From an uncultured delta proteobacterium (GTDB lineage: Bacteria; Myxococcota_A; Polyangia; Haliangiales; Haliangiaceae), in assembly GCA_963772655.1 (NCBI GenBank), contig CAVYYE010000009.1, positions 22,343-86,342 of the forward strand: DNA of 64,000 nt. Direction: 5' to 3'. This document shows positions 6,102 to 29,796 of the stretch, piece by piece. The position numbers and the translations under genes are program-made. The first letter of the stretch is position 1, and the number at the start of each line of letters is the position of its first letter. A model generated the notes under the pieces. The model ran no database searches. It had not been told where the DNA came from and worked only from the letters and a program-made list of their open reading frames with translations.

Positions 6102-6134
6102 GCGACGTCTCGATCGGCGTGCTACCTTGGATAG

Positions 6135-9100
6135 GTGCAGCCGGGTGAGGTGGTCGAGGACCGCTTCGAGATCGCCGAGGCCGCGGGCATGGGCGGGATG
6201 GGTACCGTGTATCGTGCCCGCGATCGCGTGACCGGCGATGTCGTCGCGCTCAAGGTGCTGCGCGATGCACGCGACGATCACGCCGTGCGCTTCGATCGCG
6301 AGATCCGCGTGCTCGCGAGCCTGCGACATCCCGGCATCGTCCGTTACGTCGCGGACGGGCACCTCGCCAACGGCCTGGCGTGGCTGGCCATGGAGTGGTT
6401 GGAGGGAGAGAGCCTGTCGAAGCGTCTGGCGCGCTCGGGGCTTTCCGCCAACGAGAGCATCGAGCTCGCGCGCCGCGTCGCCGAGGCGATCGGGGCGGCG
6501 CACGAGCGCGGCATCATCCATCGCGACATCAAGCCGTCGAACCTGTTCCTGGTCGGTGGCGAGCTCGATCGCGTCAAGGTCCTCGACTTCGGCGTCGCAC
6601 GCATGGTCGACGCGTCGCGCGCGTCGACCAGAACCGGCGTGATGATCGGAACGCCCGGCTACATGGCTCCCGAGCAGGTCAAGAGCGAGCGCGACATCAC
6701 GCCGCGTGCCGACGTGTTCGCGGTCGGCTGCCTGCTGTTCGAGTGTCTGACCGGGCGCGCCGCGTACCCCGGTGACAACGTGCTCGCGGTGCTCGCCAAG
6801 ATCTTGCTCGAGGATCCACCGCGGCTGTCCGAGCTCCGCCCCGATCTCCCGGATGCGGTCGACGAGTTGCTCGCGCGGACGATGGCGAAGCAGCCGGAGG
6901 AGCGACCGCGCGATGGCACCCGACTCGCCGCCGAGATCGCGGCGCTCGGTCGGCTCGAGTCCTCCGCCGCGTCGAGGATGATGCCGGCCGTACAGCCAGC
7001 GCCCGCGTTGACCGCCACCGAGCGTCGCCTGTTGTGCGTGGTGCTCGTCGGGGCTCCCGAGCAAGGCGACGACACGATCGTCGATCTGCCGGATGGCGAG
7101 TCACGCCCCGAGCCCGACGACACCCACAGCGGCGAGCTCCCGGTCAGCACGATGGTCGAGCTCGACGCCACGGTTCGCACGCATGGCGCGCGACTCGACC
7201 GCCTCGCGGACGGCTCGCACGTGATCACGTTTGCCAACACCGGTGCCGCGAGCGATCAGGTGATGCAGGCCGCGCGGTGCGCGCTCGCGCTCAAGGCGAT
7301 CGTGCCGGCCTCGCCGATCGCGCTCGCGACCGGGCGTGGCGTCCTCGCGGGCCGGTGGCCCGTGGGCGAGGCGATCGATCGTGCGGCGCGTCTGCTCGGC
7401 GTCGGCGCGCAATGGGTCCGGCTCGACGACATCACGGCGGGGCTGCTCGATGCGCGGTTCGACATCGGAGGTGACGACGCGGGGCTGTTTCTCGCGGGCG
7501 AGCGCGACGCGGTCGAGGTTCGCCGCACGCTGCTCGGCAAGGCGACGGCGTGCGTGGGTCGCGATCGCGAGCTCGGGGTGCTGTCGGGGCTGTTTCACGA
7601 ATGCGTGGCCGAGCCGATCGCGCGCGCCGTGCTGGTGACGGGGGTCGAGGGCATCGGCAAGTCGCGCGTGCGCTTCGAGCTCCTTCGCCGCATCGAGGCC
7701 GCTCCGCCCGAGGGCTCGCCCGTCGAGGTGTGGTTCGGGCGCGGCGATCCCCTGCGCGCCGGATCGCCGTACGGGATCCTCGCGCCCGCACTGCGCCGCG
7801 CGTGCGGCATCCACGAGGGCGAACCTCTCGAGGTCAGCCGCCAGAAGCTGCGCGCGCGCGTGATGCGCAACGCGAGCACCGACCTCCTCACCACCACACG
7901 GTTTCTCGGCGAGATCATCGGCACGCCGTTCCCCGACGACGACTCGGTCGAGCTCGCCGCGGCCCGCGCCGATCCGCTGCTGATGACCGATCAGGTGCGG
8001 CGCGCGTTCGAGCACTTCCTCGCGGTCGAGACCGCCGCGCAGCCGGTGTTGATCGTGCTCGAGGATGTCCACTGGGGAGACCTGCCGACGGTCAAGCTGA
8101 TCGACGCCGCGCTCCGCGCCCTTCCCGACCGGCCGTGGATGGTGCTCGCGCTCGCACGCCCCACGGTCCACGAGCTGTTCCCACGGATGTGGCACGACCG
8201 CGGCGTCCAGGAGGTTCGGCTCGAGGAGCTGACGAAGAAGGGCGCCGAGCGTCTCGTGCGCCGCGCGCTCGCCGAGCGTGCCGACGAGGCCCTGGTCGCG
8301 CGACTCGTCGAACAGGGCGGAGGAAACGCGTTCTATCTCGAGGAGCTGGTGCGCGCCGCGGTCGAGGGAAAAGGCGACACGCTGCCGGGCACGGTGCTCG
8401 CGCTGGTCGCCGGTCGGCTCGAGCGCCTCGAGGCCGATGCCCGCCGCGTGCTGCGCGCGGCGAGCGTGTTCGGTCGCCAGTTCTGGCGCGACGCCGTGGT
8501 CGAGCTGGTCGGCGCCCCGCGCGCGACCACGACCAGCGCCTGGCTCGACGAGCTGGTCGAACGCGAGCTGATCGCGAAGATGCCGGCGGGGAGCGGGCTG
8601 CGCGACGACGCCTACCAGTTCCGCCACGCGATCGTGCAAGAGGCGGCATACGCCATGCTCACCGACACCGATCGCGAGCTCGGCCACGCGCTCGCGGGTG
8701 AGTGGCTCGAGCGCGCCAACGAGACCGACGCCATGGTGCTCGCCGAGCACTACCAGCGCGCCGGCGATCCGCGCGCCCGCGAGCACTTCCTGCGTGCCGC
8801 CGAACAGGCGCTCGCGGCATGCGACTTCGGCAGCGCGAAGGCGCGCACCCAGCTCGGTGTCGATTGCGACGCGACCGGCGAGATCCTCGGTGCGCTCCGG
8901 CTCGTCGAGGCCGAAGCGCTCAAGTGGGCCGGCGAGTTCGCCGCCGCTCGCGCGCCGAGTCGGGAAGCGATGAACCTGTTGCCGGTGGGCAGTGCGCGGT
9001 GGTTCGCCGCGGCGCGCGAGGCAGCCGACGCGTACGGCAAGCTCGACGATGTCGACTCGCTGTCGGGGATCGGCGAAGCATTGCGCGCGGCCCCCGCGAA

Positions 9101-10031
9101 CGCCGGCACCGTGAACGTTCGGATCGCGGCGATCGCGCAGGCCGCGTTCCAACTGTTCTCGCACGGGCTGTTCGACCTCGCGATGGACCTGCTCGATCGT
9201 ATCGAGCAGCTGTCGGGCGACGATGTCGGCCCCGGCGTGCTCGCCCGCGTCTACCAGGCACGGTCGTCGCGTGCGATGTACGACGGCGATGCCGGCGCGT
9301 ATCTCGAGACCGAGCTGGCTGCCGCGGCGGCCTTCGAGCGCGCCGGCGACGAGCGCTACGCGTGCATGCAACGCGGTCACGTCGGGTATGCGTGCCTCGA
9401 GATCGGTGCCTACGCCGACGCCGAGCTTCACCTCCGGGAGGCCCTCGCGTCCGGCCTCCGGCTCGGCCTGTCGAACGTCGTCGCGACCGCGAAGCACAAC
9501 CTGGGCCGCGCGCTCCAGCTCCAGGGTCAGCTCGCCGAGGCGCTCGCGATCGAATCCGAGGCGGTCGCCCTGTTCGTGGCGCAGGGCGATCACCGCCTCG
9601 AGTCGGCAGCCCACACCTACCTCGCCTATATCCTCTACGAGCTCGGCGAGCTCGATCGCGCGGAAGCCGAGCTCGCGCGATCACTCGAGCTCGCGCTGCC
9701 TCCGATCCGTCCCCAGATCCTCGCCAGCCAAGCCTACGTCTTCCTGGCGCAGAACCGCGTCGCCGACGCGCTCGCCCGCGCGACCGACGCGCAGCACGAA
9801 TTCGACGAGATCGGCGGCGTCGAGGAGGGCGAGTCGCTGATCCGGCTGATGCTCGTCGAAGCCCGGCTCGCGTCCGGCGATCGCGACGGTGCGCGCGAGG
9901 CCGTGCATGCCGCGCACGCGCGCCTGCAGGCGCGCGCGAGCCGGATCTCGGATCCCGAACGACGGAGGATGTTCCTCGAGCAGATTCCCGAGAACGTGCG
10001 CACGCTCGAGCTGGCGCGCACACTGGCGTGA
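6135..10031 (+). CDS. Ser/Thr protein kinase fused to a cyclase-homology-like domain, an AAA/STAND NTPase and C-terminal TPR repeats (1298 aa)
   Basis: Kinase motifs 'GGMGTVYRA', 'VALK', 'HRDIKPSNL', 'DFG', 'APE'; then 'LLCVVLVG...' cyclase-like segment; 'VLVTGVEGIGKSR' P-loop; TPR-like C-terminus. GTG start at 6135. Confidence 0.8.
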   Translation: MQPGEVVEDRFEIAEAAGMGGMGTVYRARDRVTGDVVALKVLRDARDDHAVRFDREIRVLASLRHPGIVRYVADGHLANGLAWLAMEWLEGESLSKRLARSGLSANESIELARRVAEAIGAAHERGIIHRDIKPSNLFLVGGELDRVKVLDFGVARMVDASRASTRTGVMIGTPGYMAPEQVKSERDITPRADVFAVGCLLFECLTGRAAYPGDNVLAVLAKILLEDPPRLSELRPDLPDAVDELLARTMAKQPEERPRDGTRLAAEIAALGRLESSAASRMMPAVQPAPALTATERRLLCVVLVGAPEQGDDTIVDLPDGESRPEPDDTHSGELPVSTMVELDATVRTHGARLDRLADGSHVITFANTGAASDQVMQAARCALALKAIVPASPIALATGRGVLAGRWPVGEAIDRAARLLGVGAQWVRLDDITAGLLDARFDIGGDDAGLFLAGERDAVEVRRTLLGKATACVGRDRELGVLSGLFHECVAEPIARAVLVTGVEGIGKSRVRFELLRRIEAAPPEGSPVEVWFGRGDPLRAGSPYGILAPALRRACGIHEGEPLEVSRQKLRARVMRNASTDLLTTTRFLGEIIGTPFPDDDSVELAAARADPLLMTDQVRRAFEHFLAVETAAQPVLIVLEDVHWGDLPTVKLIDAALRALPDRPWMVLALARPTVHELFPRMWHDRGVQEVRLEELTKKGAERLVRRALAERADEALVARLVEQGGGNAFYLEELVRAAVEGKGDTLPGTVLALVAGRLERLEADARRVLRAASVFGRQFWRDAVVELVGAPRATTTSAWLDELVERELIAKMPAGSGLRDDAYQFRHAIVQEAAYAMLTDTDRELGHALAGEWLERANETDAMVLAEHYQRAGDPRAREHFLRAAEQALAACDFGSAKARTQLGVDCDATGEILGALRLVEAEALKWAGEFAAARAPSREAMNLLPVGSARWFAAAREAADAYGKLDDVDSLSGIGEALRAAPANAGTVNVRIAAIAQAAFQLFSHGLFDLAMDLLDRIEQLSGDDVGPGVLARVYQARSSRAMYDGDAGAYLETELAAAAAFERAGDERYACMQRGHVGYACLEIGAYADAELHLREALASGLRLGLSNVVATAKHNLGRALQLQGQLAEALAIESEAVALFVAQGDHRLESAAHTYLAYILYELGELDRAEAELARSLELALPPIRPQILASQAYVFLAQNRVADALARATDAQHEFDEIGGVEEGESLIRLMLVEARLASGDRDGAREAVHAAHARLQARASRISDPERRRMFLEQIPENVRTLELARTLA

Positions 10032-10042
10032 CCTGACGTCTG

Positions 10043-10651
10043 CTAGCGCGCGTTCACGTCTAGCTGTTGCGGGACCGGCTCGGGCGCCGGTGGTTCGGTT
10101 GCCGCCGATCCACCCATCACCTCGAAGTGCTCGTGTTCGGGCGCGATGGACACCTCACCGGCGATCTCGTGATAGCCGTCGTCGTGCGCGGGCTTGTCGA
10201 GCAACGCCGACGCCGCGGCAGCGCCCCCCACCGCCAGGATCGCCGCCGTGCTCGCCGCGATCCACGTGCGCCGGCGGCGCTGCGAGCGCCCGACCTCGCA
10301 GTCCTTGAGCAGGATCGTGCCGTCCTTGCGCTGGAAGTACCGGATGCACAGCTTGCCCTCGTTCGCGAGGATCACCGCCTCGGCCTCGTCGCGCGTCATG
10401 CCCGACAGGTTGTAGACGTTCTTGGCGCACGCACCGCAGTGACGAACGCGATCGTCGCCAGACATGTCCGCCCACTTCTTGGTGCACGGCGTGGCGACGC
10501 GAATGTTGTCGAGCACCGGGAGCCGCGCCTTCGCCCGGGCCTCGTCGAGCAGCCGCGTGGCCTGCTCGAGCTCGCGCGTCTTGTGCGCGACCTCGTCGGA
10601 GAGGGCATCGTGGCGAGCGGACAGGGCGGCGAGGTCGTCCCGATAGGTCAT
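10043..10651 (-). CDS. Hypothetical membrane-anchored zinc-ribbon (4-Cys) protein with N-terminal coiled coil
   Basis: Real gene hidden in the 3' part of long ORF 10043..11758. Starts 'MTYRDDLAAL' (ATG complement at 10649-10651). Motifs 'TPCTKKW...RHCGACAKNVYNL' then 'CIRYF...KDC'; C-terminal TM helix 'WIAASTAAILAVGGAAAA'. Confidence 0.55.
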   Translation of the reverse strand: MTYRDDLAALSARHDALSDEVAHKTRELEQATRLLDEARAKARLPVLDNIRVATPCTKKWADMSGDDRVRHCGACAKNVYNLSGMTRDEAEAVILANEGKLCIRYFQRKDGTILLKDCEVGRSQRRRRTWIAASTAAILAVGGAAAASALLDKPAHDDGYHEIAGEVSIAPEHEHFEVMGGSAATEPPAPEPVPQQLDVNAR

Positions 10652-10798
10652 GGCAAGTTCGACGCATCGCCGGCCCGGCGGATCTACAAGATTCGCTGCC
10701 AAAGCCATCGCTTGGCGGCGGTGTCGCGTGCTCCGGCGTCGCGATTTCGAGGGGTTCGCGATCGTCAAATCGACGGGAGGTGATACATCTCGGCTCCC

Positions 10799-11764
10799 AT
10801 GCGCGATGTCGGCGTGTTCGGCGCAGCCGGTTATTCGGGCCTCGAGCTCCTCAAGCTGCTCGCGGTCCATCCCGAGGTGCGCGTGGCGTTTGCCGCCAGC
10901 GATGCCCGCGCCGGCCGGCCGGTCGAGGATGCGATCGGGGTTCGCTCGCCGCTGGCATTCGTCGACACACAGGCCGCGAAGGCGCGGGCGAAGGCCTGCG
11001 CGGCCGTGCTGCTCGCGGTCCCGCACGCCGCCGCCCCGGAGCTCGCGAAGAAGCTCGACGGCACACCGGTCATCGATCTGTCGAACGCACACCGCGCGAC
11101 GCCCGGCGTGCCGTACGGCCTGACGGCCTTGTTCGCGAACGACGTCGGTCCCTCGACGCGACTGGTCGCCAATCCCGGCTGCTACGCGACCGCGGTGATC
11201 ACCGCCGCCGCTCCGCTCGTCGAGCACGACCTGATCGATGGTGACCTCGTGGTGTGCGCGAGCTCGGGCGTTACCGGCGCGGGACGCCAGGCCACCGAGG
11301 CCGCATCGCTCGGCGAGGCCTACGGCGACGTTCGCGCCTACAAGGTGCTGCGCCACCAGCACGTGCCCGAGATCGAGGCCGCGCTCCGGCGTGTCCACGC
11401 GAGCGCGCCACGCGTCACCCTCACCACCCACCTGCTCCCCGTCGCACGCGGCATCCTCGCGACGCTCTCGCTCAAGCTCCGGCGGCCGGTCGCGGCGAGC
11501 GAGCTGATCGCGCACTACCGCGCTCGCTATGGCGACGATCCCACCGTCACGATCGCCCCGGATGCCGAGGCGGTGTCGCTGCGTCGCGTGGTCGGCACCA
11601 ACCAGTGTCTGATCGGTGTCACGGCGGACGGCGATCGCGCGATCGTCACCTCCGCGATCGACAACCTGCTCAAGGGCGCCGCCGGTCAAGCCGTGGAGAA
11701 CCTCAACCTCTTGCTCGGGCTGCCCCGCACCGTCGGGCTGACCCATCTCGCGAGGCACGCGTGA
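10799..11764 (+). CDS. argC: N-acetyl-gamma-glutamyl-phosphate reductase
   Basis: 'GAAGYSGLELLKLL', 'NPGCYATA' active-site Cys motif, 'AIDNLLKGAAGQAVENLN' C-terminus. Confidence 0.9.
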   Translation: MRDVGVFGAAGYSGLELLKLLAVHPEVRVAFAASDARAGRPVEDAIGVRSPLAFVDTQAAKARAKACAAVLLAVPHAAAPELAKKLDGTPVIDLSNAHRATPGVPYGLTALFANDVGPSTRLVANPGCYATAVITAAAPLVEHDLIDGDLVVCASSGVTGAGRQATEAASLGEAYGDVRAYKVLRHQHVPEIEAALRRVHASAPRVTLTTHLLPVARGILATLSLKLRRPVAASELIAHYRARYGDDPTVTIAPDAEAVSLRRVVGTNQCLIGVTADGDRAIVTSAIDNLLKGAAGQAVENLNLLLGLPRTVGLTHLARHA

Positions 11765-12945
11765 AGCTCCCCGCCGGGTTCTCGTTCTCGGGCATCGCCT
11801 GCGGGATCAAGCCGCACCGCCCCGATCTCGCGCTCGTGGTGTCGGATACCGATGCGGCGTGCGCCGGCGCGTTCACCGTCAATCGCGCGAAGGCGGCCCC
11901 GGTGGTCGACGCCGAACGCCGGCTCCCCGCCGAGGGGATCCGCGCGATCGTGATCAACAGCGGCAACGCCAACGCGCTGACCGGTGCCGATGGCATGACC
12001 GCGGTGCAGACGGTGATCGATGCCACCGCGCGCGGCCTCGACGTCGGCGCGGCACAGGTGGTGTCGGCCTCGACCGGCGTGATCGGGATGAAGCTGCCCG
12101 AGCACAAGATCGTGGCCGCCCTGCCCCGCTGCATCTCGGAGCTGTCGGGCGATCCCGAACGCGCCGCCGAGGCGATCATGACCACCGACACCACCAAGAA
12201 GCTCGGTTCGCGCTCGATCGAGCTCGGTGGCAAGCCCGTGACCCTGGCGGTGATCGCCAAGGGCTCCGGGATGATCGCGCCGCAGCTCGCGACCACGATC
12301 GCCGTGGTGGTCACCGACTGCGCGATCGACTCGAACGTCCTCGACGATGCACTCGAGGCCGCGACCAGCGCCACGCTCAACCAGCTGACGATCGACGGCG
12401 ACATGTCGACCAACGACAGCGTGTTCGTGCTCGCCAACGGTCGCGCCGGGAACCCGAAGATCACCGCCGCCGAGGGCGCCGACTTCGACAAGCTCGCCAC
12501 GGCGCTGAACGAGCTGTTCGACGAGATGGCCCGCGCGATCGCGGCCGACGGCGAGGGCGCGACCAAGCGGATCGAGACCGTGGTCACCGGTGCTCCCGAC
12601 GAGGATGTCGCGCGCGACATCGCGAAGAGCATCACCGCGTCGCCGCTGGTCAAGGCGGCCATGTTCGGCGGCGATCCCAACTGGGGTCGCGTGCTGTCGA
12701 CCGTGGGCGCACGCGCCGGCTCCCAGGGCTGGGCGATCGAGCCCGCCGATGCGCGGGTGTCGATCCAGGGTGTGTGCGTCTACGACCGCGGTCCGCAACC
12801 GCTCGACCGCGCGGGTCTGCGCGCGCGGCTGCGCGAGCCCGAGGTCGTGATCGATGTCGAGTTGCGGTCCGGCGAGGCGACCGCACGCGCGTACGGCTGC
12901 GACCTGTCGTACGACTACGTCAAGCTCAACGCCGACTACACGTCG
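11761..12945 (+). CDS. argJ: Glutamate N-acetyltransferase / ornithine acetyltransferase (bifunctional ArgJ). No stop codon separates it from the downstream argB frame.
   Basis: 'KLPAGFSFSGIACGIK', 'MTTDT', autoproteolytic 'ATML' region, C-terminus 'SYDYVKLNADYTS'. GTG 11761 overlaps the argC stop; same frame as ORF 11254..13869. Confidence 0.8.
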
Positions 12946-13869
12946 TTGCTCGTCGAAGCGCCGGATGGCGGCGTCGCCAAGGACGATCGACTCGGCAACT
13001 ACAGCCCGGCGTTCAAGCGCGCGCTACTGGTCGAGGCGCTCGCCTACATCGATCAGTTTCGCGGCAAGCGCTGCGTGATCAAGTACGGCGGCGCCGCGCT
13101 GGTCCGGGACTCGCTCAAGCGGTCGTTTTGCGACGACGTGCTGCTGTTGCACTCGGTCGGACTCTCGCCGGTGGTGGTTCACGGCGATGGCCCCGAGCTC
13201 ACCCGCATGCTCGAGAAGATGGGCGGTCGCGAGGCCGAGGTCATCGACGGCATCCGCGTGTTGCCGAGCTCCGACATGCGCGTGATGGAGATGGTGGTCG
13301 ACGGCCAGATCAACAGCGAGCTGGTGACCTTGCTCAACCGCAGGTCGCCGCACGCGATCGGGATGTCGGGCAAGGACGCCGCCCTGCTCCGTGCTCGCAA
13401 GCTCGCGCGCGAGGACGGTCGCGACCTCGGCCACGTCGGCGAGCTGGTCGAGGTCAACAAGGGATTCCTCGAGTCGCTGCTCGGGCAGCACTACATCCCG
13501 GTGATCTCGCCGATCGGGCTCGGCGCCGACGGCGAGATCTACGGGCTCGATCCCGATCTGGTGGCCGCCGGCGTGGCCGCGGCGATCGGCGCCGACAAGC
13601 TGATCTACCTGTCGAACGTCGCGGGCGTGCTCGAGATGAACCCGAGCTCGCCACGGCGGGGCGACCTGATCACCGAGCTGACGGCCACCGAGCTACGCAA
13701 CCGGCTCGAGGCCGGATCGATCACCGGCGGCATGGCGAGCAAGGCCGCCGCGGTACTCCGCGCGCTCGCGGGCGGCGTTCCCGCCGTCCATCTGGTGGAC
13801 GGTCGAGCGCCGCACAACGTGATCGCGGAGCTGTTCACGGACCGCGGTGTCGGGACGGTCGTTCGCTGA
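12946..13869 (+). CDS. argB: Acetylglutamate kinase. Either starts at TTG 12946 or is translated as an ArgJ-ArgB fusion.
   Basis: 'KRALLVEALAYIDQFRGKRCVIKYGGAAL', 'VVVHGGGPE', 'GIRVT'-like, 'INAD' and C-terminal kinase motifs. In frame with argJ; no ATG/GTG available between the domains. Confidence 0.75.
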   Translation: MLVEAPDGGVAKDDRLGNYSPAFKRALLVEALAYIDQFRGKRCVIKYGGAALVRDSLKRSFCDDVLLLHSVGLSPVVVHGDGPELTRMLEKMGGREAEVIDGIRVLPSSDMRVMEMVVDGQINSELVTLLNRRSPHAIGMSGKDAALLRARKLAREDGRDLGHVGELVEVNKGFLESLLGQHYIPVISPIGLGADGEIYGLDPDLVAAGVAAAIGADKLIYLSNVAGVLEMNPSSPRRGDLITELTATELRNRLEAGSITGGMASKAAAVLRALAGGVPAVHLVDGRAPHNVIAELFTDRGVGTVVR

Positions 13870-16577: not shown

Positions 16578-18356
16578 TCAGCGCTGCGTCGCGAGCCACG
16601 CCCGGGCGTCGCGGAGCGCCTCGGCGGCGGGCAGGTTGACGTCGACATCGACCGGCGCCCCCGTGATCTCCTCGAGCGAACGCCGCGCGTAGTAGCGAAC
16701 CAGCGGATAGGCGTGCGCCATCATCGGCGCGATCGCCGGGATCGCGGTGCGATCGCGCAGCTCGCCGTAGACACCGATCGCCACCGCCTGCTCGTGCGGC
16801 TTGCCGCGCACGAGCGTCGCGCGCATCGCGTTGACGTCGAGGTCTTCGCCGTACAGCGCGCGCAGCTTCGCGCGGTCGTAGCGCTTGTTCCACCACTGCT
16901 CCATCGTCGACACCAGCGACGACACCGACTTGTCGGCGTGGCACAGCGCGCACTCGAGCGGGCGATCGCGCTCGACCCGCTTCGGATCGTTCGGCGAACC
17001 GATCCGGTGGTAGCGCACGAGGGCGTAGTCGAGCCCCATGTTCTTCTTCGGCATGTGGCACGCCACGCACGACGTGCCGGTACTGCCCGCCGCGTGATGG
17101 CTGTGCTGCACGACGGTGGCCGCGATCGCCTGGTGGCACGACGCGCACAGCTTGTTGCCGGCCGGCGTCGCCATCGCGGCGAGCTTGGCGCGCGGATCCT
17201 CGGTGTGCGGGTCGTGGCACTGCGTGCACGCCATCGCGCTCGCGCAACCACCGATCTGGAAGTCGCGTCCCTCCCCGGAGTTGGTCGAGCTACCGCCGGG
17301 GTTTTTGCGCCGCACCCCGCCTTCCCAGGTCCACGGGTAGTGCGTGAACAGCACGGTGTGGCACTTCGCGCAGGTGTGGTTGATCCACTGCGCGCGATTT
17401 CCAGCCTCGCCGTTCGGCGGATCGATCCCGAACAAGCTGCTACGCACCGCGAACGACGGCAGGATCTTGGGATCGACGGCGTGCTCGCGCGATCCGTTGT
17501 GGCAGGCCTCGCAACCGATGCCGAGCTCGACAAGCTTGTCGGTATCGAGGCGATCGCGCGTGGTGCGCGCTGCCTCGCCGAGTAGCGCGTGCGCACCCGA
17601 GGCCTCCGGCTCGCCGCCGAGGAACACGATCTCGCGTCGCAGCGCGGACGCCAGGCCATCGTCGTCGTCGACGTGCGCCGGCCACAGGAACCGCGGCGGC
17701 ACCGCGCGGTCGCTGAGCTTCTGCTGGAACGGGGGAGCGTGCGGCCCGTAGAGCTCGTCGTAGTAGTTGGTCGCGAGCGGCAGCGTGTTGTGGCAACCGA
17801 TGCAGACCTGCTTCCACGCCGTGCCGACCACGAGGCGGGGTCGCTCCTTGACCATCACCGAGTAGCCTTTGTAGCGCCACGACTTGGTGTGGAACACGTA
17901 GGTCGCCGGCAGCACGCGCTCGGTGTGATCGCCGGAACCCTCGAGGCGGCCGACGAAATCCTCGCGGTAGCGCCCGCCGATCACCTTGGTCACGCGGTAG
18001 CGCTCGGTCCCTCCGGCCGTCGTCACGGTGACGATCCGCGCGGAGCCCTCGGTGGTCATCGTCGCGGACGTCGCCCCGACCCGCAGCGTCGCACCGGCGA
18101 ACGGCGCACGGATCTTCGCGGTCGCCGCGTCGCGCGTCATGTTGTGCATCGGCGACGCCATCCAGCGCTGGTACAGATCGCCGTGGCAATCGGCGCACGC
18201 CGTCGAACCGGCATAGTCGTCGCGCAGCACGTTGCTCGCGACGATGCCTCCGCCCGTGGTCCCGACCTCGTGCGGCCGCGCCGGCTTCGAGCCGCATGCC
18301 GCGATCACCACGATCGGCACGATCGACGCGACCGACGAGACCGACGAGATCTGCAC
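16578..18356 (-). CDS. Multiheme c-type cytochrome lipoprotein (8 CxxCH motifs)
   Basis: Motifs CADCH, CIGCH, CEACH, CAKCH, CTQCH, CASCH, CVACH, CALCH; lipobox 'VVIAACGS' near the N-terminus. Confidence 0.8.
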   Translation of the reverse strand: MQISSVSSVASIVPIVVIAACGSKPARPHEVGTTGGGIVASNVLRDDYAGSTACADCHGDLYQRWMASPMHNMTRDAATAKIRAPFAGATLRVGATSATMTTEGSARIVTVTTAGGTERYRVTKVIGGRYREDFVGRLEGSGDHTERVLPATYVFHTKSWRYKGYSVMVKERPRLVVGTAWKQVCIGCHNTLPLATNYYDELYGPHAPPFQQKLSDRAVPPRFLWPAHVDDDDGLASALRREIVFLGGEPEASGAHALLGEAARTTRDRLDTDKLVELGIGCEACHNGSREHAVDPKILPSFAVRSSLFGIDPPNGEAGNRAQWINHTCAKCHTVLFTHYPWTWEGGVRRKNPGGSSTNSGEGRDFQIGGCASAMACTQCHDPHTEDPRAKLAAMATPAGNKLCASCHQAIAATVVQHSHHAAGSTGTSCVACHMPKKNMGLDYALVRYHRIGSPNDPKRVERDRPLECALCHADKSVSSLVSTMEQWWNKRYDRAKLRALYGEDLDVNAMRATLVRGKPHEQAVAIGVYGELRDRTAIPAIAPMMAHAYPLVRYYARRSLEEITGAPVDVDVNLPAAEALRDARAWLATQR

Positions 18357-22884: not shown

Positions 22885-23718
22885 TTAGTCGACGGGCGTT
22901 GGCCGCACGAACACCAACGCGCCCGGCGGTGTCCCCGGGAGTTTCGCCTCGACGAAGTGATCGAGACGATCGAGGATCGCCCACGCACCGAGCTCGTTGG
23001 CGTGCAGACCGTCGGGACCGACCAGTGACTTCGCGGGTACGCGTTCGCCGGGAGCGATCTCGATGTCGTCACCGTTGGCGAGTGGTTCGGCCCAGCTCGC
23101 GAACGGAACGAGCACGACGCGATCGCGATGACTCCACTGAGCGATCTCGTGATTGAAATGCGCGATCGTTTTCACATCCGGAACGTGATCTTTGGGGATC
23201 AGCATCTCGGCGGCCGTGGTGATCCGCGGCACGTCGCCCACGACGATCCACGCTCCCGTCTGTCGTGCCCGCTCGAGCTCGCCGAGTGCGGCGGCGAGAG
23301 ATCGCTCCCGCCAACGATCGTCGGCCGATCCGTAGACGTCCCAGAACAACAGATCGATGGCGAAGATCGATTCGGCGTGGAATCCGATCGCCCGATCGAT
23401 CTGTGCGTGGGTGTCTCCCACCGGATCGCGAAACAGCCACACGTTCGCGTAGGCCTCGACTTTCGATCGTGGGGCGGCCGCCGCGAACAGGTCACCGAAT
23501 GGCGTTCCGCCCAATCCGGCCGAGACGCTGGCTCCCACGATCGCGATCCGGGAGGTGGGGAGTGCAGGTTCCGATCGGACCGGAATTGGGGGGTGCGGCC
23601 CACGACCTTGCCCCACCCGAGTCGGATCGGCCCCGCCGGTCCCGCTTGGGTGGTTGGGACCACTGCAACCTGCGCTCAGGCATAGCGACCCGAGCCAGAA
23701 TATCGCCCAATATCGCAC
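22885..23718 (-). CDS. SGNH/GDSL-family hydrolase lipoprotein
   Basis: Lipobox signal 'MRYWAIFWLGSLCLSAGC' (GTG start at 23716-23718); 'IVGASVSAG' GDS-like block; 'DGLHAN' C-terminal catalytic His block. Confidence 0.55.
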   Translation of the reverse strand: MRYWAIFWLGSLCLSAGCSGPNHPSGTGGADPTRVGQGRGPHPPIPVRSEPALPTSRIAIVGASVSAGLGGTPFGDLFAAAAPRSKVEAYANVWLFRDPVGDTHAQIDRAIGFHAESIFAIDLLFWDVYGSADDRWRERSLAAALGELERARQTGAWIVVGDVPRITTAAEMLIPKDHVPDVKTIAHFNHEIAQWSHRDRVVLVPFASWAEPLANGDDIEIAPGERVPAKSLVGPDGLHANELGAWAILDRLDHFVEAKLPGTPPGALVFVRPTPVD

Positions 23719-23984
23719 ATGGACGCCGGTTAACCTACTGAAGTTGCACTTTATGGCCATGTGTTTTCAATCATTTGGATGGTGGGCACAACTGGCCCCA
23801 CTGGGGTGTGAAATCTCATGCGCAATGCTGTCCTTGCACAACTCGATCTAGTATTATCAGTAGGTTGGCGATTCCGAGAGGTGGGGATCCCGGTCGGTAC
23901 AGTGGTTGCTCTAGGATCGGGCCTATGCTGATTGGTCTGCCATTGTCTCCGGCAAACCGTAGCGTCGCCCGGTCTCGGCGGTCG

Positions 23985-25199
23985 ATGTTGGAGACCCTCG
24001 TCCGCCACCTCGGCATGGTCCGGTTGACCGTGGCGGCTGCCATGGTGCTGGCCGTCACGGGCTGTTCGGGCCTCATCGATGACGGTGGGACGGGTGGGTT
24101 GTCGCCCGAAGAGGTGGTGGCCCGCAAGCTGTGGCTCGAGAAGGCGCTGCCGACCCTCACGGCGAACTGCCAGCAGTGCCACAACGGATCGCGCGAGAAC
24201 ATCGGCTTCTTGGTCGGCAACTCCGACCTCGAGATTCGCGACACCCTGCTCGCCTACGAGCCCGCGGCCGTCAACCTCGATGCCCCGGCGTCGTCCCGTC
24301 TGTTGACCAAGGGCCCGCACGAAGGTCCGGCGCTCACGGCCATCCAGACCTCGGATCTTCTCGAGTGGGTCAACGCGGAGAAGGATGCGGCCACCAGCGA
24401 CCCCGACAACACGACGGCTCCGATCGAGACGGCGCAGTTCCTTCCTCAGATCTGCACCAGCGGTCTCCCGGATGATCCGCCCGCGAACCCCAACCCCAAC
24501 TGCCCGGTCAACAAGGTGCCGCTCGACGAAGTCGGGGCCACGGGCGCGACCATCAACTTCGTTGCCCAGGCGCTCGGCTCGGGCCTCTACGTCACCAACC
24601 TCAAGCTGGTGCCGGGAACCGACGGCGCATACATCGAGCACCCCCTGTTCGTGTCGTGGCCGATGGACGGCTCGGAGCCGAAGGCCGACACGATCGATCG
24701 CTTCTACAACGTGAAGCTCAACCTGCAGGCGACGGCCACGTCCGAGGAGCAGCAGATCGGTGGTGGCACCGCGGCGTTCGTCGGGTTCTTCGCGACCGAC
24801 AAGATCACCATCCACTTCAAGGACGCGAAGCTGTTCCAACCGGACGACGGTGGCGGTACGATGAACACTGGCTGCAAAGTGCTCGACCAGTTCAAGACGG
24901 GGGCGGTCGGCCCGATGCAGCAGAACTGTCTGTCGTGCCACGGCGGTCAGAACCAGAACGCCACCACCTCGATGGACATCACCGGTATCGACAGCGGCGA
25001 CGACGCGATGATCCAGAACGCGTGCAACCAGGTTCGCACGCGGGTGAACTTCCAGGACATCCCGTCGAGCGGTGTGTTCCTCGCGACGACGCCCGGCAAC
25101 AACAACCACCCCTTCACCTTCAATGGCAACACCGCCAACCACGACGCCTTCGTCAATGCTCTTACCCCGTGGATCACGGCTGAACGAGACGCACCCTAA
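23985..25199 (+). CDS. Lipoprotein with two CxxCH heme-binding motifs (PSCyt-like). Apparent N-terminal piece of a split DUF1592/DUF1595-family protein.
   Basis: Lipobox 'VLAVTGCSG'; 'CQQCHNG' and 'CLSCHGG'; followed at a 9-nt gap by two more lipoprotein genes and a DUF1552-like gene. Confidence 0.55.
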   Translation: MLETLVRHLGMVRLTVAAAMVLAVTGCSGLIDDGGTGGLSPEEVVARKLWLEKALPTLTANCQQCHNGSRENIGFLVGNSDLEIRDTLLAYEPAAVNLDAPASSRLLTKGPHEGPALTAIQTSDLLEWVNAEKDAATSDPDNTTAPIETAQFLPQICTSGLPDDPPANPNPNCPVNKVPLDEVGATGATINFVAQALGSGLYVTNLKLVPGTDGAYIEHPLFVSWPMDGSEPKADTIDRFYNVKLNLQATATSEEQQIGGGTAAFVGFFATDKITIHFKDAKLFQPDDGGGTMNTGCKVLDQFKTGAVGPMQQNCLSCHGGQNQNATTSMDITGIDSGDDAMIQNACNQVRTRVNFQDIPSSGVFLATTPGNNNHPFTFNGNTANHDAFVNALTPWITAERDAP

Positions 25200-25208
25200 A
25201 GGAGCCCC

Positions 25209-26369
25209 ATGAAGAGGATCTCAACCCTATTGCTGGCAGCCGCACTCGCGGTTCCCACCGTTGCCTGCACCGGTGGAAACGGATCGTCGGGTGATGACAC
25301 TGTTGGCGACGATACTGGCTCGGGCGACGAATGGGACCAGGCGCTCGCAGAGCGAGAGTACGACTACAATGCGGCGCTCCGCATTGCCGCACTCCGCCTG
25401 ACCGGCGACGTCCCGACGGTCACCGAGATCAACGAGATCGCACAAGCGGGAGACGTCGCGGTGCAGAAGAGCCTCTACGAGGCCCGCATCCAGGACTATG
25501 TCTCGCGGCCGACGTTCGCGAAGCAGATGTTCTACTTCTGGCGCGACACCTTCAAGATCGGTGACACGGCGGAGTTCGATACCGCTCCGGCTCTCGCCGC
25601 GCAGATCTCGACCGAGAACCGCAGCTACATGGACCTGTTCACGCAGTCGACCGGCGCGTGTCCGACGTTCGACGAGACCACGTCGACGTTCACCGCGGCG
25701 GACTGCACCGGCAACGGCCCGCAGGCCGGCGTGCTGGGCAACCCCGGCGTGATGGCGCAGTTCTTCTCGAACTTCGCGTTCCGTCGCGTTCGCTGGGTGG
25801 AAGAGACGTTCGACTGCCTCAAGTTCCCGGTCGAGCTCAACGGCACCGCGCAGGATGTCGGCGCCGCGTCGCCGTACACCGGCGAATGGCCGTTCGACAG
25901 CATCGCGGGCACCGACACCGGCGGCCGCGTCGACTTCAAGGACGTCTCGTCGGTCATCTGTGCGAACTGCCACCAGACGATCAACCACATCGCTCCGCTG
26001 TTCGCGAACTACGACGAGAATGGCGTGTTCCAGAACACCATCTCGGTGCCGACGCCGCTCGACGGCGCCCCGCTCGCCGAGATCACGGACTACTTCCCCG
26101 CCGGCCAGAGCACGGCGTGGCGCTTCGGCCAGCCGGTCGCCGACATCCCGGCGCTCGGTGCGGCGATGGCAGCCGACCCCGACATCGCGCAGTGCGGCGT
26201 CGCCCGCGTCTGGAACTGGGCGCTCGGCAAGACCGACATCGTCGACGCTCTCGAGGAGGTGCCGCCCGAGGTCATCCAGACCCAGACCGATGCCTTCACC
26301 GCCAACGGCTACAAGCTGAAAGACCTGATCGTTGCCGTCTACACCAGCGACGACTTCACGAAGTTCTAA
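25209..26369 (+). CDS. Lipoprotein, middle piece of the split DUF1592/DUF1588/DUF1585-like protein; contains an 'ICANCHQ' motif
   Basis: Strong SD AAAGGAG 7 nt upstream; lipobox 'AVPTVACTGG'. Confidence 0.5.
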   Translation: MKRISTLLLAAALAVPTVACTGGNGSSGDDTVGDDTGSGDEWDQALAEREYDYNAALRIAALRLTGDVPTVTEINEIAQAGDVAVQKSLYEARIQDYVSRPTFAKQMFYFWRDTFKIGDTAEFDTAPALAAQISTENRSYMDLFTQSTGACPTFDETTSTFTAADCTGNGPQAGVLGNPGVMAQFFSNFAFRRVRWVEETFDCLKFPVELNGTAQDVGAASPYTGEWPFDSIAGTDTGGRVDFKDVSSVICANCHQTINHIAPLFANYDENGVFQNTISVPTPLDGAPLAEITDYFPAGQSTAWRFGQPVADIPALGAAMAADPDIAQCGVARVWNWALGKTDIVDALEEVPPEVIQTQTDAFTANGYKLKDLIVAVYTSDDFTKF

Positions 26370-26379
26370 GGAGGCGACC

Positions 26380-27069
26380 ATGACTCGTACTGGAACCAAA
26401 CTGACGATCCTGGTCGCGTCACTCGGACTGGCCGCCACCGCATGTGGCGGGCTGGACGACAACACGACCACCGACCCGAACGCACAGCCCGAAGGCTCGA
26501 CCGCGGGTGGCGAAGACAACACCTTCGACCACGACAACTCTGGCTTCGACCCGTTCGACCTGCTCGACCGGCTCGAGAAGGAGGGGCCACCGCGCTACAC
26601 CGCGCGTGTCCACAGTTGCCCGAAGGTCCGCTACCGCACCCTCGGCAACGTCCTGACCTCGTTCGGCGTCGACATCACCGACACCACCAACCTGTCGCCC
26701 GGCCAGCTCTACACGAGCGGCTTCAACGCGATGGGCGGTCCGAACTACGCCAACCGGATTCGCGAGAACCTGAACATCACGACGTCGAGTGCGTCGCGCG
26801 AGTTCGACATCTTCGCTGCTGCGGCTCCGCAGATCGTCGCGAACATGCCGACCCTCGAGCGGTGCAAGGACGCCAACGGCGTCGGTGCCGTGATGTTCGA
26901 TGCGAGTGGCGCCTGCCGCGCTGACGGCATCCAGTGCCTGATTGGCGTGCCGGCCCAGGCCGCACACCTCGACTTCTGCAACATCACCGTGTCGAGCGCC
27001 AGTGACACGACGACCGGTCAGAATATTGCCGTCGCGGCCATGCTTGCCGCGGCCTACACCTGCGAGTGA
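26380..27069 (+). CDS. Lipoprotein, C-terminal piece of the split DUF1587/1592-like protein
   Basis: SD AAGGAGG; lipobox 'LGLAATACGG'; 10-nt gaps to both neighbouring genes. Confidence 0.5.
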   Translation: MTRTGTKLTILVASLGLAATACGGLDDNTTTDPNAQPEGSTAGGEDNTFDHDNSGFDPFDLLDRLEKEGPPRYTARVHSCPKVRYRTLGNVLTSFGVDITDTTNLSPGQLYTSGFNAMGGPNYANRIRENLNITTSSASREFDIFAAAAPQIVANMPTLERCKDANGVGAVMFDASGACRADGIQCLIGVPAQAAHLDFCNITVSSASDTTTGQNIAVAAMLAAAYTCE

Positions 27070-27080
27070 GGAGAAGCACC

Positions 27081-28469
27081 ATGGCGAAAACCCCCTTTGC
27101 GAAGCGCGACGAACACCAGGAGCTGTCCCGGCGCGCTCTCATCAAGTGGACTGTCGCTGCGGGCGCCGCACTCGGCGTGTCGCGTGGCAAGATCCTCGAA
27201 ATCCTCGAAGGCTCGGCTGGTAAGGGCATCGCGTACGCGGCTGCCTCCAGCGTGACCATGCGGTCGGTCCACCTGGTCGCCGGTAACGGCGGTCTGGCGT
27301 GGTTCCAGCTGCTGTGGCCGCAGGTCGAGGTCGCGATGGCCAACAACAACAACTTTGCCTGGCACAAGCCCGGCCAAGCGACGTTGGTGGCCGGCACCTA
27401 CAAGCCCCTCGCGGTCGGTCCCGACACGCCGTGGGTGAACCTCCCGGCGGCGCGTCAGATGACGGGCTTCTTGTGCGGCAACAACGAGACGCACACGAGC
27501 ACGCCGAACTCGACGACCTCGCTCAACGGCGCCAACATCCACGCGATCGCGGCGACGTTGCAGGCGCAGACGCCGACGGTCATCCCCGCGATCCAGTTCC
27601 GCGACGCCGACTACGGTACGGCGCCGGGCGCGCCCACCGCGGCGCAGGTCGCGAGCGCCGGTGACGCCGTGAACCTGTTCAACAGTGCGGCCTCGCGGGC
27701 CGGTGGTCTGCTCACGATGTCGAGCAACGCCGCGCTCTACAAGGCGCAGTACGACGCGTTCGCCCAGCTCAACCGCGCGGCGAATCGCTCGACGCAGAAG
27801 AAGGCGTACACCACGGCCTCTGGTGCCGCGCAGTTCCTCGGCACCAACCTCGCCGCGAAGCTCGCCCTCACCCAGGCCGACCTCACGATGTACGGCATCG
27901 ACGGCAACACGCCGAACAACGTCCGTCAGATCGGCGAGACGCTGATCTTCACGGCCAAGGCGTTCGCGATGGGGCTCACCAACTCGGTGGTTCTCCCCGC
28001 GATGCGCGACGACCCGCACGGTGCGTTCGCCGATGGTCGCGTCAACACCGTCCCCGGACAGCTCAAGAACGTCCTCGACGGCTTCATGAACCACCTCTCG
28101 ATGCTGACCGACGAGGCGACCATGGAGACCCTCGCCGACAACACCGTCATCACGGTGAGCGGCGACACGACCAAGAACTCGCTGAACCGGAACGGGTGGC
28201 CCGATGGCACGCCGAACAACAGCAACATGGTGTACGTCCTCGGCGGCGGCCACCTGAAGACGGGCTGGTTCGGGCAGATCAAGGCAGCCGGTCAGGCCGA
28301 GGGCTTCGACGCGGACGGCAACGCGGCCACCTACGCGGGTGGCAACCAGGCCAAGTTCGCGCTCGCCTCGATCGCCTACGCGATCGCCAAGCGCGACGAC
28401 CGCCTGATCTCGCCGTTCGCGAACGGCATCACGATCGCCAACAAGTTTGGTAACCCGAAGGACCTGTAG
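27081..28469 (+). CDS. DUF1552-like protein with a twin-arginine (Tat) signal
   Basis: 'SRRALIKWTVAAGAALGVS' Tat-like signal; ~460 aa; SD GAGGAG. This is the canonical partner type of DUF1592-family proteins. Confidence 0.55.
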   Translation: MAKTPFAKRDEHQELSRRALIKWTVAAGAALGVSRGKILEILEGSAGKGIAYAAASSVTMRSVHLVAGNGGLAWFQLLWPQVEVAMANNNNFAWHKPGQATLVAGTYKPLAVGPDTPWVNLPAARQMTGFLCGNNETHTSTPNSTTSLNGANIHAIAATLQAQTPTVIPAIQFRDADYGTAPGAPTAAQVASAGDAVNLFNSAASRAGGLLTMSSNAALYKAQYDAFAQLNRAANRSTQKKAYTTASGAAQFLGTNLAAKLALTQADLTMYGIDGNTPNNVRQIGETLIFTAKAFAMGLTNSVVLPAMRDDPHGAFADGRVNTVPGQLKNVLDGFMNHLSMLTDEATMETLADNTVITVSGDTTKNSLNRNGWPDGTPNNSNMVYVLGGGHLKTGWFGQIKAAGQAEGFDADGNAATYAGGNQAKFALASIAYAIAKRDDRLISPFANGITIANKFGNPKDL

Positions 28470-28615
28470 GCCAGCGTCGTAACAATCTGGAACACGGGCC
28501 GGCTCTCACGAGCCGGCCTGTTTTGGTTTCGGACTCGACGCTGTCTCCAGCTGCTTGTTTTTCGCTCCTCGCTGGAGATCGGTGTGCGCGCGGGTGTGCG
28601 TGCTAGGCTACGACC

Positions 28616-29251
28616 GTGCGATTCGCGGTGCTCGGCCTTCTTTTTGGCCTGCTGATGTCGCCTGCGTGCGACCGCAACGAGGCCAAAGGCGGGGTCGGCA
28701 AGGCCACGAGCTCGTCGAGCCACAACAGCGACACGGAGCGGGAACAGGCCCGGTTCGACGCCGAGCGGCGGCCCGAGAAGGTCGTCGAGGCGTTGGGCAT
28801 CAAGCCCGGCTCGAAGGTCGCCGATATCGGTGCCGGTTCCGGCCTGCTCACGGTGCACCTCGCGCGCGCGGTCAAACCCAACGGCAAGGTCGTCGCGACG
28901 GACATCGATGAAGGTGTGCTCGAGCTCATGCGATCTCGGTTACAGGCCGCGGGGCTCGATCAGTACGTCGAACGCCGGGTCGTGGCGGAGGACACACCGG
29001 GTCTCGAGCCGGGCGAGTACGATGCGATCTTGCTCGCCGAGGTCGACCACTACTTCCGGGATCCGGTGACGTGGCTCAAGGCCGCATCGGTCGCGCTCAA
29101 GCCCAACGGACGTCTCGTGATCTCCAACCGGATCCACCACCGCCAGAAGTCGATGGCCGCTGCGGCCAAGGCCGGCCTCAAGCTGGTCAGCGAATCGACG
29201 CCGGTTCCCACGCACTTCATCGCAGTGTTCGTGGTGGAGCACGGAACGTGA
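28616..29251 (+). CDS. Class I SAM-dependent methyltransferase with lipoprotein-type signal
   Basis: 'VADIGAGSGLLTVHLA' SAM motif I, 'KPNGKVVATDID' motif II, 'LKPNGRLVIS' post-II; N-terminal 'LLFGLLMSPAC'. Confidence 0.65.
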   Translation: MRFAVLGLLFGLLMSPACDRNEAKGGVGKATSSSSHNSDTEREQARFDAERRPEKVVEALGIKPGSKVADIGAGSGLLTVHLARAVKPNGKVVATDIDEGVLELMRSRLQAAGLDQYVERRVVAEDTPGLEPGEYDAILLAEVDHYFRDPVTWLKAASVALKPNGRLVISNRIHHRQKSMAAAAKAGLKLVSESTPVPTHFIAVFVVEHGT

Positions 29252-29796
29252 GAGCTCCGACGTACGCCGGTGCCTGCCTGCTCGCCGCGTTCGCGGTCGG
29301 TACGCTCGCGGGCTGTCCGTCGAACAACGACAGCAACCCGAGCGTGCTGTGGCTCGCCCCCGACGGTTCCGAGGTTCGGGTCCACCTGGTGGACACCGAG
29401 CCGCCACCCTTTTGAGCACCTGGTGTGGGACCCGGGCGGTCCCAGGAAGCTCCGTACACGCTGCAGGCTCCGGTGCCCGCCGGCACCTACCACGTGATCT
29501 GCGACGCGATCATCATCAAGCCGGTCGACGTCACCTTCGAGCTCATCCATCGCTCGAAGGCCGGTGACACCAACCTGGCGACCTGGACCGAGCACTTCGA
29601 GCCACTGACCGGCGGTGTCTACGAGGCGCAGGCCTACGAGATCGATCAGGCAGCCCCGGCGATCGAGCTCGATGGCGACGACGAGTTCGTGTTCCGCTAC
29701 TCGGGCTCCAACACCGACACCGAGCAGGCGTTCATCCCCAACGGGGACGGCGAGCGCGCGGGTGGTCGGATCCCGAACATCACGCTTCCCGAATAG
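29248..29796 (+). CDS. Hypothetical lipoprotein interrupted by in-frame TGA (29413-29415). Candidate selenoprotein or split gene.
   Basis: Lipobox 'LLAAFAVGTLAGC'. ORFs 29248..29415 and 29416..29796 are in the same frame, separated only by TGA. SECIS-like hairpin at 29427-29443. Confidence 0.4.
29427..29443 (+). promoter_or_regulatory. SECIS-like RNA hairpin GGGACC-CGGGC-GGUCCC, 11 nt downstream of in-frame TGA
   Basis: Perfect 6-bp stem and CGGGC loop. It shares the 11-mer CCCGGGCGGTC with the hairpin at 18608-18624 but in a different codon phase. Confidence 0.45.

Follow-up and report, generated by a model that had tools for sequence, protein, structure and literature searches.

Heme-motif proteins of the PSCyt, DUF1592 and DUF1800 types that are paired with a DUF1552 or DUF1501 protein that is exported via twin-arginine translocation (Tat) belong to the most strongly expanded families in Planctomycetes, Verrucomicrobia, Myxococcota and other groups (PMC3542564, PMC5615132). 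Electron transport has been proposed for the DUF1501/PSCyt modules, of which four-gene versions with a separate PSCyt1 cytochrome have been described (Kamneva et al. 2012, PMC3542564), and in Proteobacteria the operons of DUF1800 and DUF1501 genes, whose two-gene core codes first for a helical protein and then for its partner with Tat export, are horizontally transferred together (PMC5122149). Here we analyze a related locus in a 64,000-nucleotide stretch of contig CAVYYE010000009.1 from an uncultured member of the Haliangiaceae (the whole stretch is called the window in the following), in which four genes, A, B, C and D, occupy positions 23925-28469 of the + strand. With moderate confidence we propose that they encode a lipid-anchored four-subunit enzyme complex of the periplasm, in which a metal-dependent protein D with the fold of the alkaline phosphatase (AP) superfamily would work together with a relay of three hemes, and that the operon is controlled by sigma-54.

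The operon can be described as a compact multi-subunit relative of the DUF1592/DUF1552 pairs and of the PSCyt/DUF1501 modules. With the former, represented by plasmids of Novosphingobium sp. RL4 (L167) and Sphingobium herbicidovorans (pMSHV, L170), it shares a partner gene that follows immediately 3' and whose product, of comparable length, starts with a twin-arginine leader. Furthermore, the homologous part of the DUF1592-type proteins in relation to B is made up of their last ~300 residues, a stretch that includes the DUF1588 CxxCH motif and the whole of DUF1585. Unlike in these pairs, B has neither DUF1587 nor DUF1595 and carries a DUF1549-like N-terminal half instead, D falls outside the DUF1552 model, A and C are additional subunits (frequent and obligatory, respectively), and every subunit that is not exported via Tat is a lipoprotein. 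The PSCyt1/PSCyt2/PSD1 + DUF1501 modules of Planctomycetes and Verrucomicrobia likewise combine one or more heme-motif proteins with a Tat-signal partner; the separate PSCyt1 cytochrome of their four-gene versions is comparable to A, and the N-terminal half of B matches PSCyt2/DUF1549 as in these modules. In contrast to them, neither PSD1/DUF1553 nor DUF1501 was detected in the operon, its proteins are much smaller and free of carbohydrate-binding or WD40/Big_2 modules, and its hosts are Myxococcota and one phage lineage. As to the DUF1800 + DUF1501 operons, DUF1800 proteins were not reported as heme proteins in PMC5122149, D lies outside DUF1501, and the sole DUF1800 signal was one in B with an E-value of 0.17. 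The operon is set apart from its relatives by an unrecognisable D family, the orphan protein C, the separate di-heme protein A, the lipid anchors and the predicted sigma-54 control.

Operon structure, distribution and promoter

The four open reading frames (ORFs) are of coding-type composition (GC3 0.83-0.91) and follow each other on the same strand with gaps of 9, 10 and 11 nt, in agreement with the first-pass annotation of this DNA. Gene A (23925-25199) codes for a 424-aa lipoprotein predicted to be a di-heme c-type cytochrome, B (25209-26369) for a 386-aa lipoprotein with one predicted heme, which is the family-defining subunit, C (26380-27069) for a 229-aa orphan lipoprotein and D (27081-28469) for a 462-aa Tat-exported protein with a modeled AP-superfamily core, the presumed catalytic subunit. 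A strong Shine-Dalgarno (SD) sequence had been claimed for each gene, which is correct for B (TAAAGGAGCCCCATG), C (TAAGGAGGCGACCATG) and D (TGAGGAGAAGCACCATG) and incorrect for A. After D, the operon is ended by an intrinsic terminator on the + strand (28494-28521) with a 12-bp stem containing 9 GC pairs, followed by the T tract TTTTGGTTT. An Rfam scan of the operon and its leader gave no match.

From the one-genome-per-species data 80 loci were retrieved, nearly all from metagenome-assembled genomes of Kofleriaceae or Haliangiales. The order A-B-C-D was present in 70 of them, while the remaining ten comprise five loci on incomplete contigs, two without A and three solo D paralogues. A metagenome scan added ~35 loci with A-B-C-D or B-C-D on contigs with a GC content of 45 to ~71%, and among the resulting ~115 loci no fused A-B-C form was found. 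Apart from the three solo paralogues, D lies 3' of heme-motif partner genes in all loci. In the species-genome loci the median gaps are again 9-11 nt, and an SD-like sequence precedes 69 of 72 B genes, 71 of 75 C genes and 72 of 78 D genes. An origin of the separate ORFs from sequencing errors or pseudogenes was rejected, since the ORFs are found separate, with SD sequences and signal peptides of their own, in over 100 loci.

B-C-D without A was observed in three IMG/VR contigs (L161, L162 and L163, in the last at 8075-11380), which belong to one freshwater phage lineage and are the only such cases among 2.9 million viral contigs; one of them is of jumbo size (200 kb). IMGVR_UViG_3300034101_006325 is a phage with this module. 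Next to the genes in the phages, a major head protein (phrog_138, E 1.7e-73) is encoded, along with virion proteins and homing endonucleases. The phage proteins are 39-47% identical to those of the window and have kept the lipoboxes, the CANCH motif of B, the C-terminal CE of C and the RR leader of D. B-C-D is the core of the module and A a frequent add-on. Taken together, the tight coupling of the genes, the shared compartment of the products, their co-inheritance and the transfer of B-C-D to a phage speak for a physical complex.

The start of A had been placed at 23985, which was not borne out. The ATG lies 60 nt upstream, at 23925, whereas no SD sequence precedes 23985. Upstream of 23985 SR[RK]x residues are conserved, and the Ser codon of this motif alternates between AGT and TCN among loci, which shows translation of the stretch. 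Ahead of the ATG a sigma-54-type promoter was located on the + strand (23886-23912, GATCCC-N4-GGTAC-N5-TTGCT-CTA). Its core GGTACAGTGGTTGCT at 23896-23910 fits the GG-N10-GC pattern of sigma-54 -24/-12 elements (TGGCAC-N5-TTGCW-like boxes), with the -24 GG at 23896-23897 and the -12 GC at 23908-23909. GGYAC-N5-TTGCW has a single match within the window (0.15 expected), and with exact spacing the promoter is kept in 54 of 57 orthologous loci. The consensus across orthologous loci is GATCCC-N4-GGCAC-N5-TTGCT-(G/C)TA, and in every scorable locus an in-frame ATG for A follows 13-18 nt past the -12 GC. As the phase of the promoter relative to gene A differs among the loci, its conservation is at the DNA level.

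No sigma-70-like site was detected in the leader region of the operon, and control by sigma-54 is predicted as a part of the preferred reading, at the confidence given for the whole. The ATG of A is situated ~4 nt past the expected transcription start, which suggests that A may be read from an almost leaderless mRNA; this would explain why A alone has no SD sequence. The low-GC region reported upstream of the genes was confirmed as a dip to 0.57 at ~23600-24050 (0.65-0.70 nearby). Furthermore, a GGG-N9-CCCC-N3-GGGG element (23784-23807, + strand), conserved in a logo of 56 loci aligned on the promoter and situated ~90-110 nt upstream of the -24 box, may be the binding site of an activator of the enhancer-binding-protein type; no gene for such a protein was found among the neighbouring ORFs scanned.

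The lipoproteins A, B and C

In the first-pass annotation A, B and C had been regarded as a DUF1592/1588/1585/1587-type protein split into three lipoproteins beside a DUF1552 partner, D. A lipobox of its own on each of them was corroborated by the orthologue alignments, in which the lipobox Cys is invariant (43 sequences for A, 54 for B and 44 for C). Heme motifs, which had been attributed to the three proteins together, are present in A (two CxxCH) and B (one CANCH) and absent from C.

The proposed family link holds for B. In the window's B, DUF1585 (PSD2) scored 27.6 bits against a Pfam cut-off of 25.8 (residues 307-383, profile 2-74 of 74), while DUF1549 and DUF1588 remained just under their cut-offs (20.1 vs 27 bits for DUF1588). 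Applying a hit threshold of E<=0.01, which was also used for A, DUF1549 (PSCyt2) was matched by 53 of the 54 orthologues, DUF1588 (PSCyt3, best E 2.5e-7) by 49 and DUF1585 by 38. The resulting order is a DUF1549-like N-terminal part, DUF1588 with the CANCH motif and DUF1585; DUF1587 (PSD3) and DUF1595 (PSD5) gave no match in B or its 54 orthologues. CANCH is invariant in the alignment, and B is predicted to carry one covalent c-type heme. A search of the B profile against PDB sequences gave no match, and the AlphaFold2 model of B (pLDDT 78.5) had no fold match in the PDB.

As unsplit reference served the protein of the Novosphingobium sp. RL4 plasmid, which contains DUF1587, DUF1595, DUF1592, DUF1588 and DUF1585 and whose gene pair was reached via a single weak match of B in tblastn against plasmids. 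Four further reference pairs, from Sphingobium (two), Planctomyces and Chondrinema, completed a five-sequence alignment. By hhalign the B family scored 96.5% with the Novosphingobium protein (E 7e-10; B 86-381 on reference 300-594) and 97.6% with the five-sequence alignment, whereby the CANCH of B is paired with the CAGCH of the reference. DUF1592 (PSD4, reference 267-395) has no Pfam match in B, yet the hhalign alignment covers reference positions 300-395. Judged by these profile comparisons, B is a single-piece homologue of the C-terminal half (~300 residues) of a DUF1592-type protein.

Protein A consists of a long N-terminal extension, the lipobox LAVTG-C47, a first heme domain, a beta-rich middle domain and a second heme domain. 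C66xxC69H70, C319xxC322H323, H116 and H379 (numbering from the SRR motif) are invariant in the 43 orthologues; two covalent c-type hemes are predicted, with H116 and H379 as candidate distal His, one for each heme domain. A matches only generic cytochrome c models, and Cytochrome_CBB3 is matched by 30 of the 43 orthologues. PSCyt1 (PF07635) stayed below its cut-off in the window's A (19 vs 22 bits) and was matched by a single orthologue. Within the extension, ahead of the lipoprotein h-region, a segment SR[RK]xML[ED]TLxRHLxMVRL is conserved (23973-24014). It looks like a twin-arginine motif, yet RK replaces RR in many orthologues, and the Pfam Tat-signal model did not match full-length A. Tat export would be an odd route for a c-type cytochrome.

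Protein C has six invariant Cys, H78 and a C-terminal T-C-E that is invariant in the alignment, and 73 of 75 orthologues end with CE. It matched nothing in Pfam, NCBIfam or the PDB, profile search included. Since the C gene always stands between B and D, in the phage copies as well, we regard C as a new obligatory subunit of the module.

With these data the idea of a single split protein can be weighed. The domains and the alignment of B speak for it, and a faint hhalign signal (10%, E 0.003) connects heme domain 1 of A with the PSCyt1-type N-terminal module of a 1212-aa Chondrinema DUF1592 protein. On the Planctomyces sp. SH-PL62 plasmid pPL62-3 (L168, 1-5293) a DUF1587 and a DUF1592 protein are annotated as two overlapping genes before DUF1552, so that splits may occur; in this plasmid the large protein has either been split naturally or been affected by a frameshift. 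However, against the unsplit references A scored 0.3% and C 1% and 0.1%, so that C is left without a counterpart, and its position after B is not co-linear with the large protein. The Pfam models of DUF1587, DUF1595 and DUF1592 are absent from A, B and C (43-54 orthologues each), D fails as a DUF1552 protein (see below), and a fused relative is missing from the ~115 loci. We therefore consider a three-way split improbable; as regards C and D it is already largely refuted.

Protein D and the proposed complex

The twin-arginine signal assigned to D was verified: in the leader SRRALIKW both R17 and R18 are invariant. Of 1.84 billion representatives, the small D family accounts for 318 clusters (50% identity). 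The former assignment of D as a DUF1552 partner is right with respect to gene position and Tat export and wrong with respect to sequence. None of 76 diverse family members matched DUF1552 (HXXSHH, PF07586) or DUF1501 (PF07394) at E<=0.1, or any other Pfam domain, whereas the Novosphingobium DUF1552 partner scored 176 bits in the same library. By hhalign D reached 1.2% with a single DUF1552 sequence and 5% with the five-sequence alignment (E 0.008, co-linear over 160 columns). Membership of D in DUF1552 or DUF1501 was consequently rejected at the sequence level. A motif scan for DUF1552/DUF1501 genes in the window and the 80 loci found none, and tblastn of D against plasmids gave no match. Against PDB sequences the D profile matched only Tat leaders, those of CueO and of the small subunit of a hydrogenase, and no PDB chain beyond these leaders. 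In a motif comparison based on the alignments, D and DUF1552 share a strand motif L-x-DN-x-V...(S/G)(D/E), which we take to be of the type seen in sulfatases.

According to the structural model, the core of D is an alpha/beta fold of the AP superfamily, interrupted by a helical insert of ~100 residues that is partly of low confidence (residues 208-254). The closest structural neighbours are NPP-type phosphodiesterases, the phosphatase PafA and sulfatases, at a sequence identity of 6-12%. Conserved throughout the family are H138 (in N-E-T-H), D311-P-H313, G361-D362-T, K365, W373 and D375. T137-H138 is a candidate nucleophile motif, with T in 55 and H in 72 of the 76 members.

Some Kofleriaceae carry a second, solo D paralogue behind an unrelated ~680-aa lipoprotein gene (L020, L022; ~4700-6740 and 7001-8400). 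A 1319-aa ORF upstream of these paralogues was tried as an unsplit partner and rejected: its N-terminal part is an out-of-frame, Arg-rich artefact, and the real gene is the one for the ~680-aa lipoprotein.

A serious rival, for which the structural neighbours of D speak and which we nevertheless rate as unlikely, is a plain nutrient-scavenging hydrolase. In that case D would release phosphate or sulfate in the manner of a phosphatase, phosphodiesterase or sulfatase, and the hemes would be structural, regulatory or sensing. Conditional control by a sigma-54 promoter would suit such a role, and D-like proteins exist alone, without cytochromes. Moreover, aquatic phages are known to carry phosphate-acquisition genes, a habit into which a B-C-D moron beside the head gene would fit. 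However, D is only 6-12% similar to real phosphatases and sulfatases, and the canonical first-strand Asp and nucleophile motifs are not conserved. The three invariant heme sites and the linkage of B and D across phyla and in phage argue for heme having a share in the function.

According to the preferred reading of a lipid-anchored complex, transcription would begin ~4 nt before the ATG of A, and B, C and D would be produced by SD-driven, closely coupled translation. A, B and C would be exported and receive a lipid anchor at the lipobox Cys, and c-type heme would be attached to A (two hemes) and B (one heme), each of the three probably with a second His ligand. D would fold in the cytoplasm and then cross the membrane by the Tat route, after which B would dock on it, as the large single proteins elsewhere do with DUF1552 or DUF1501 partners. 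D would supply a metal-dependent active site on its AP-type scaffold, a scaffold that usually acts on phospho- or sulfo-ester-like anionic groups. Electrons would pass between this site and periplasmic or membrane carriers via the heme of B and then both hemes of A, and C would be an obligatory, disulfide-stabilised subunit with a structural or substrate-handling role. Electron transfer is suggested by the three invariant heme sites, and a metal site with an anionic group as its target by the scaffold of D and its conserved His, Asp and Lys residues. On the Sphingobium plasmids (L170, 1367-6350; L171, 1313-6308) the genes directly behind the classical DUF1592-DUF1552 pair code for cytochrome c, cytochrome b561 and a short-chain dehydrogenase/reductase (SDR) oxidoreductase, a hint in support of an electron exchange between the wider class and the membrane.

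Several observations weigh against this reading. The usual Asp after strand 1 is absent in D, which has N, T, V, G or S as residue 69, and no CxPxR sulfatase motif was found in the D family, both in difference to the NPP/ENPP enzymes, PafA and the S1 sulfatases of the AP superfamily; D may be no classical hydrolase, or even no enzyme. A sister family of D consists of solo lipoproteins of the Sec type (~400-420 aa; L081-L093, metagenome) without cytochrome neighbours, and thus the fold can operate in the absence of hemes, and not all of its members are exported via Tat. A can be dispensed with, being absent from the phage copies and from L139, and in L141 it has a single CxxCH. We know of no redox enzyme on the AP fold. 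The families of heme-motif and DUF1552/DUF1501 proteins are without an assigned biochemical function (PMC3542564, PMC5615132), so that any reaction assigned to the operon is a guess.

A more far-reaching interpretation, which we put forward very tentatively and regard as improbable, is that B-C-D, with A as an option, is a self-contained, horizontally mobile periplasmic oxidoreductase with its catalytic subunit on the AP fold. One possible reaction would be the oxidation of an oxyanion of reduced phosphorus or sulfur, for instance phosphite, with electrons delivered to the c-type hemes. The sole precedent for such chemistry is E. coli alkaline phosphatase, which can oxidise phosphite.

Still less probable appears a module for envelope modification or phage exclusion, in which D would be a transferase or hydrolase acting on envelope lipids or polymers and would alter the host surface in the phage. 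The AP fold is indeed found in the envelope enzymes EptA/MCR-1, LtaS, BcsG and YejM, but D is without the transmembrane domain of these transferases. All of A, B and C are lipid-anchored at the membrane, and phage-encoded periplasmic lipoproteins often serve superinfection exclusion; hemes, however, play no part in such reactions. In Kofleriaceae a gene of the ornithine-lipid-hydroxylase-like type is conserved near the operon, though in this one family only, and the promoter and the terminator separate it from the operon.

Neighbouring genes and wider significance

Both the upstream lipid-hydroxylase gene and a downstream methyltransferase gene were examined as operon members and rejected, given the terminator or promoter in between and a conservation confined to Kofleriaceae. 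The downstream gene (28616-29251) codes for a protein with an S-adenosylmethionine (SAM)-methyltransferase fold, a signal peptide and the lipobox LLMSPAC, which would put a SAM enzyme in an unusual place. The gene is conserved just 3' of D in 57 loci of Kofleriaceae, on the far side of the terminator, and is missing near the non-Kofleriaceae copies. An ORF of ~123 aa without family match (29425-29796) is conserved downstream in 65 loci; just before it, in another frame, lies a short lipoprotein-like ORF (29071-29415), and the two may belong to a single gene that is frameshifted or whose start was called wrongly. On the other side, a divergent gene on the - strand (22885-23760) codes for a 291-aa lipoprotein without Pfam or NCBIfam match, in which GDSL/SGNH-hydrolase-like motifs were seen by eye; it stands upstream of A in only ~10 related loci. 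Further upstream, at a distance of ~5.5 kb from the operon, a gene on the - strand (16578-18356) codes for a multiheme c-type cytochrome of 592 aa (Cytochrome_C7, paired CXXCH), and a single 871-aa ORF with ArgJ and amino-acid-kinase domains (11254-13869) either represents an unusual fusion of the ArgJ-ArgB type or was called too long.

With respect to the wider class, the operon represents a minimal module, in which B is reduced to 386 aa and corresponds to the C-terminal half only, D has diverged past recognition by any library and C is a new subunit. The capture of B-C-D by a phage argues for an autonomous module of quick benefit. Its subunits are small and separate, its candidate active-site residues are invariant and its sigma-54-type promoter is defined, which makes it a practical biochemical entry to the whole class. 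If the oxidoreductase interpretation were true, it would provide the first function for the whole PSCyt/DUF1592-DUF1552/DUF1501 class, and the operon would be the smallest version in which to study it, one that is also phage-borne.

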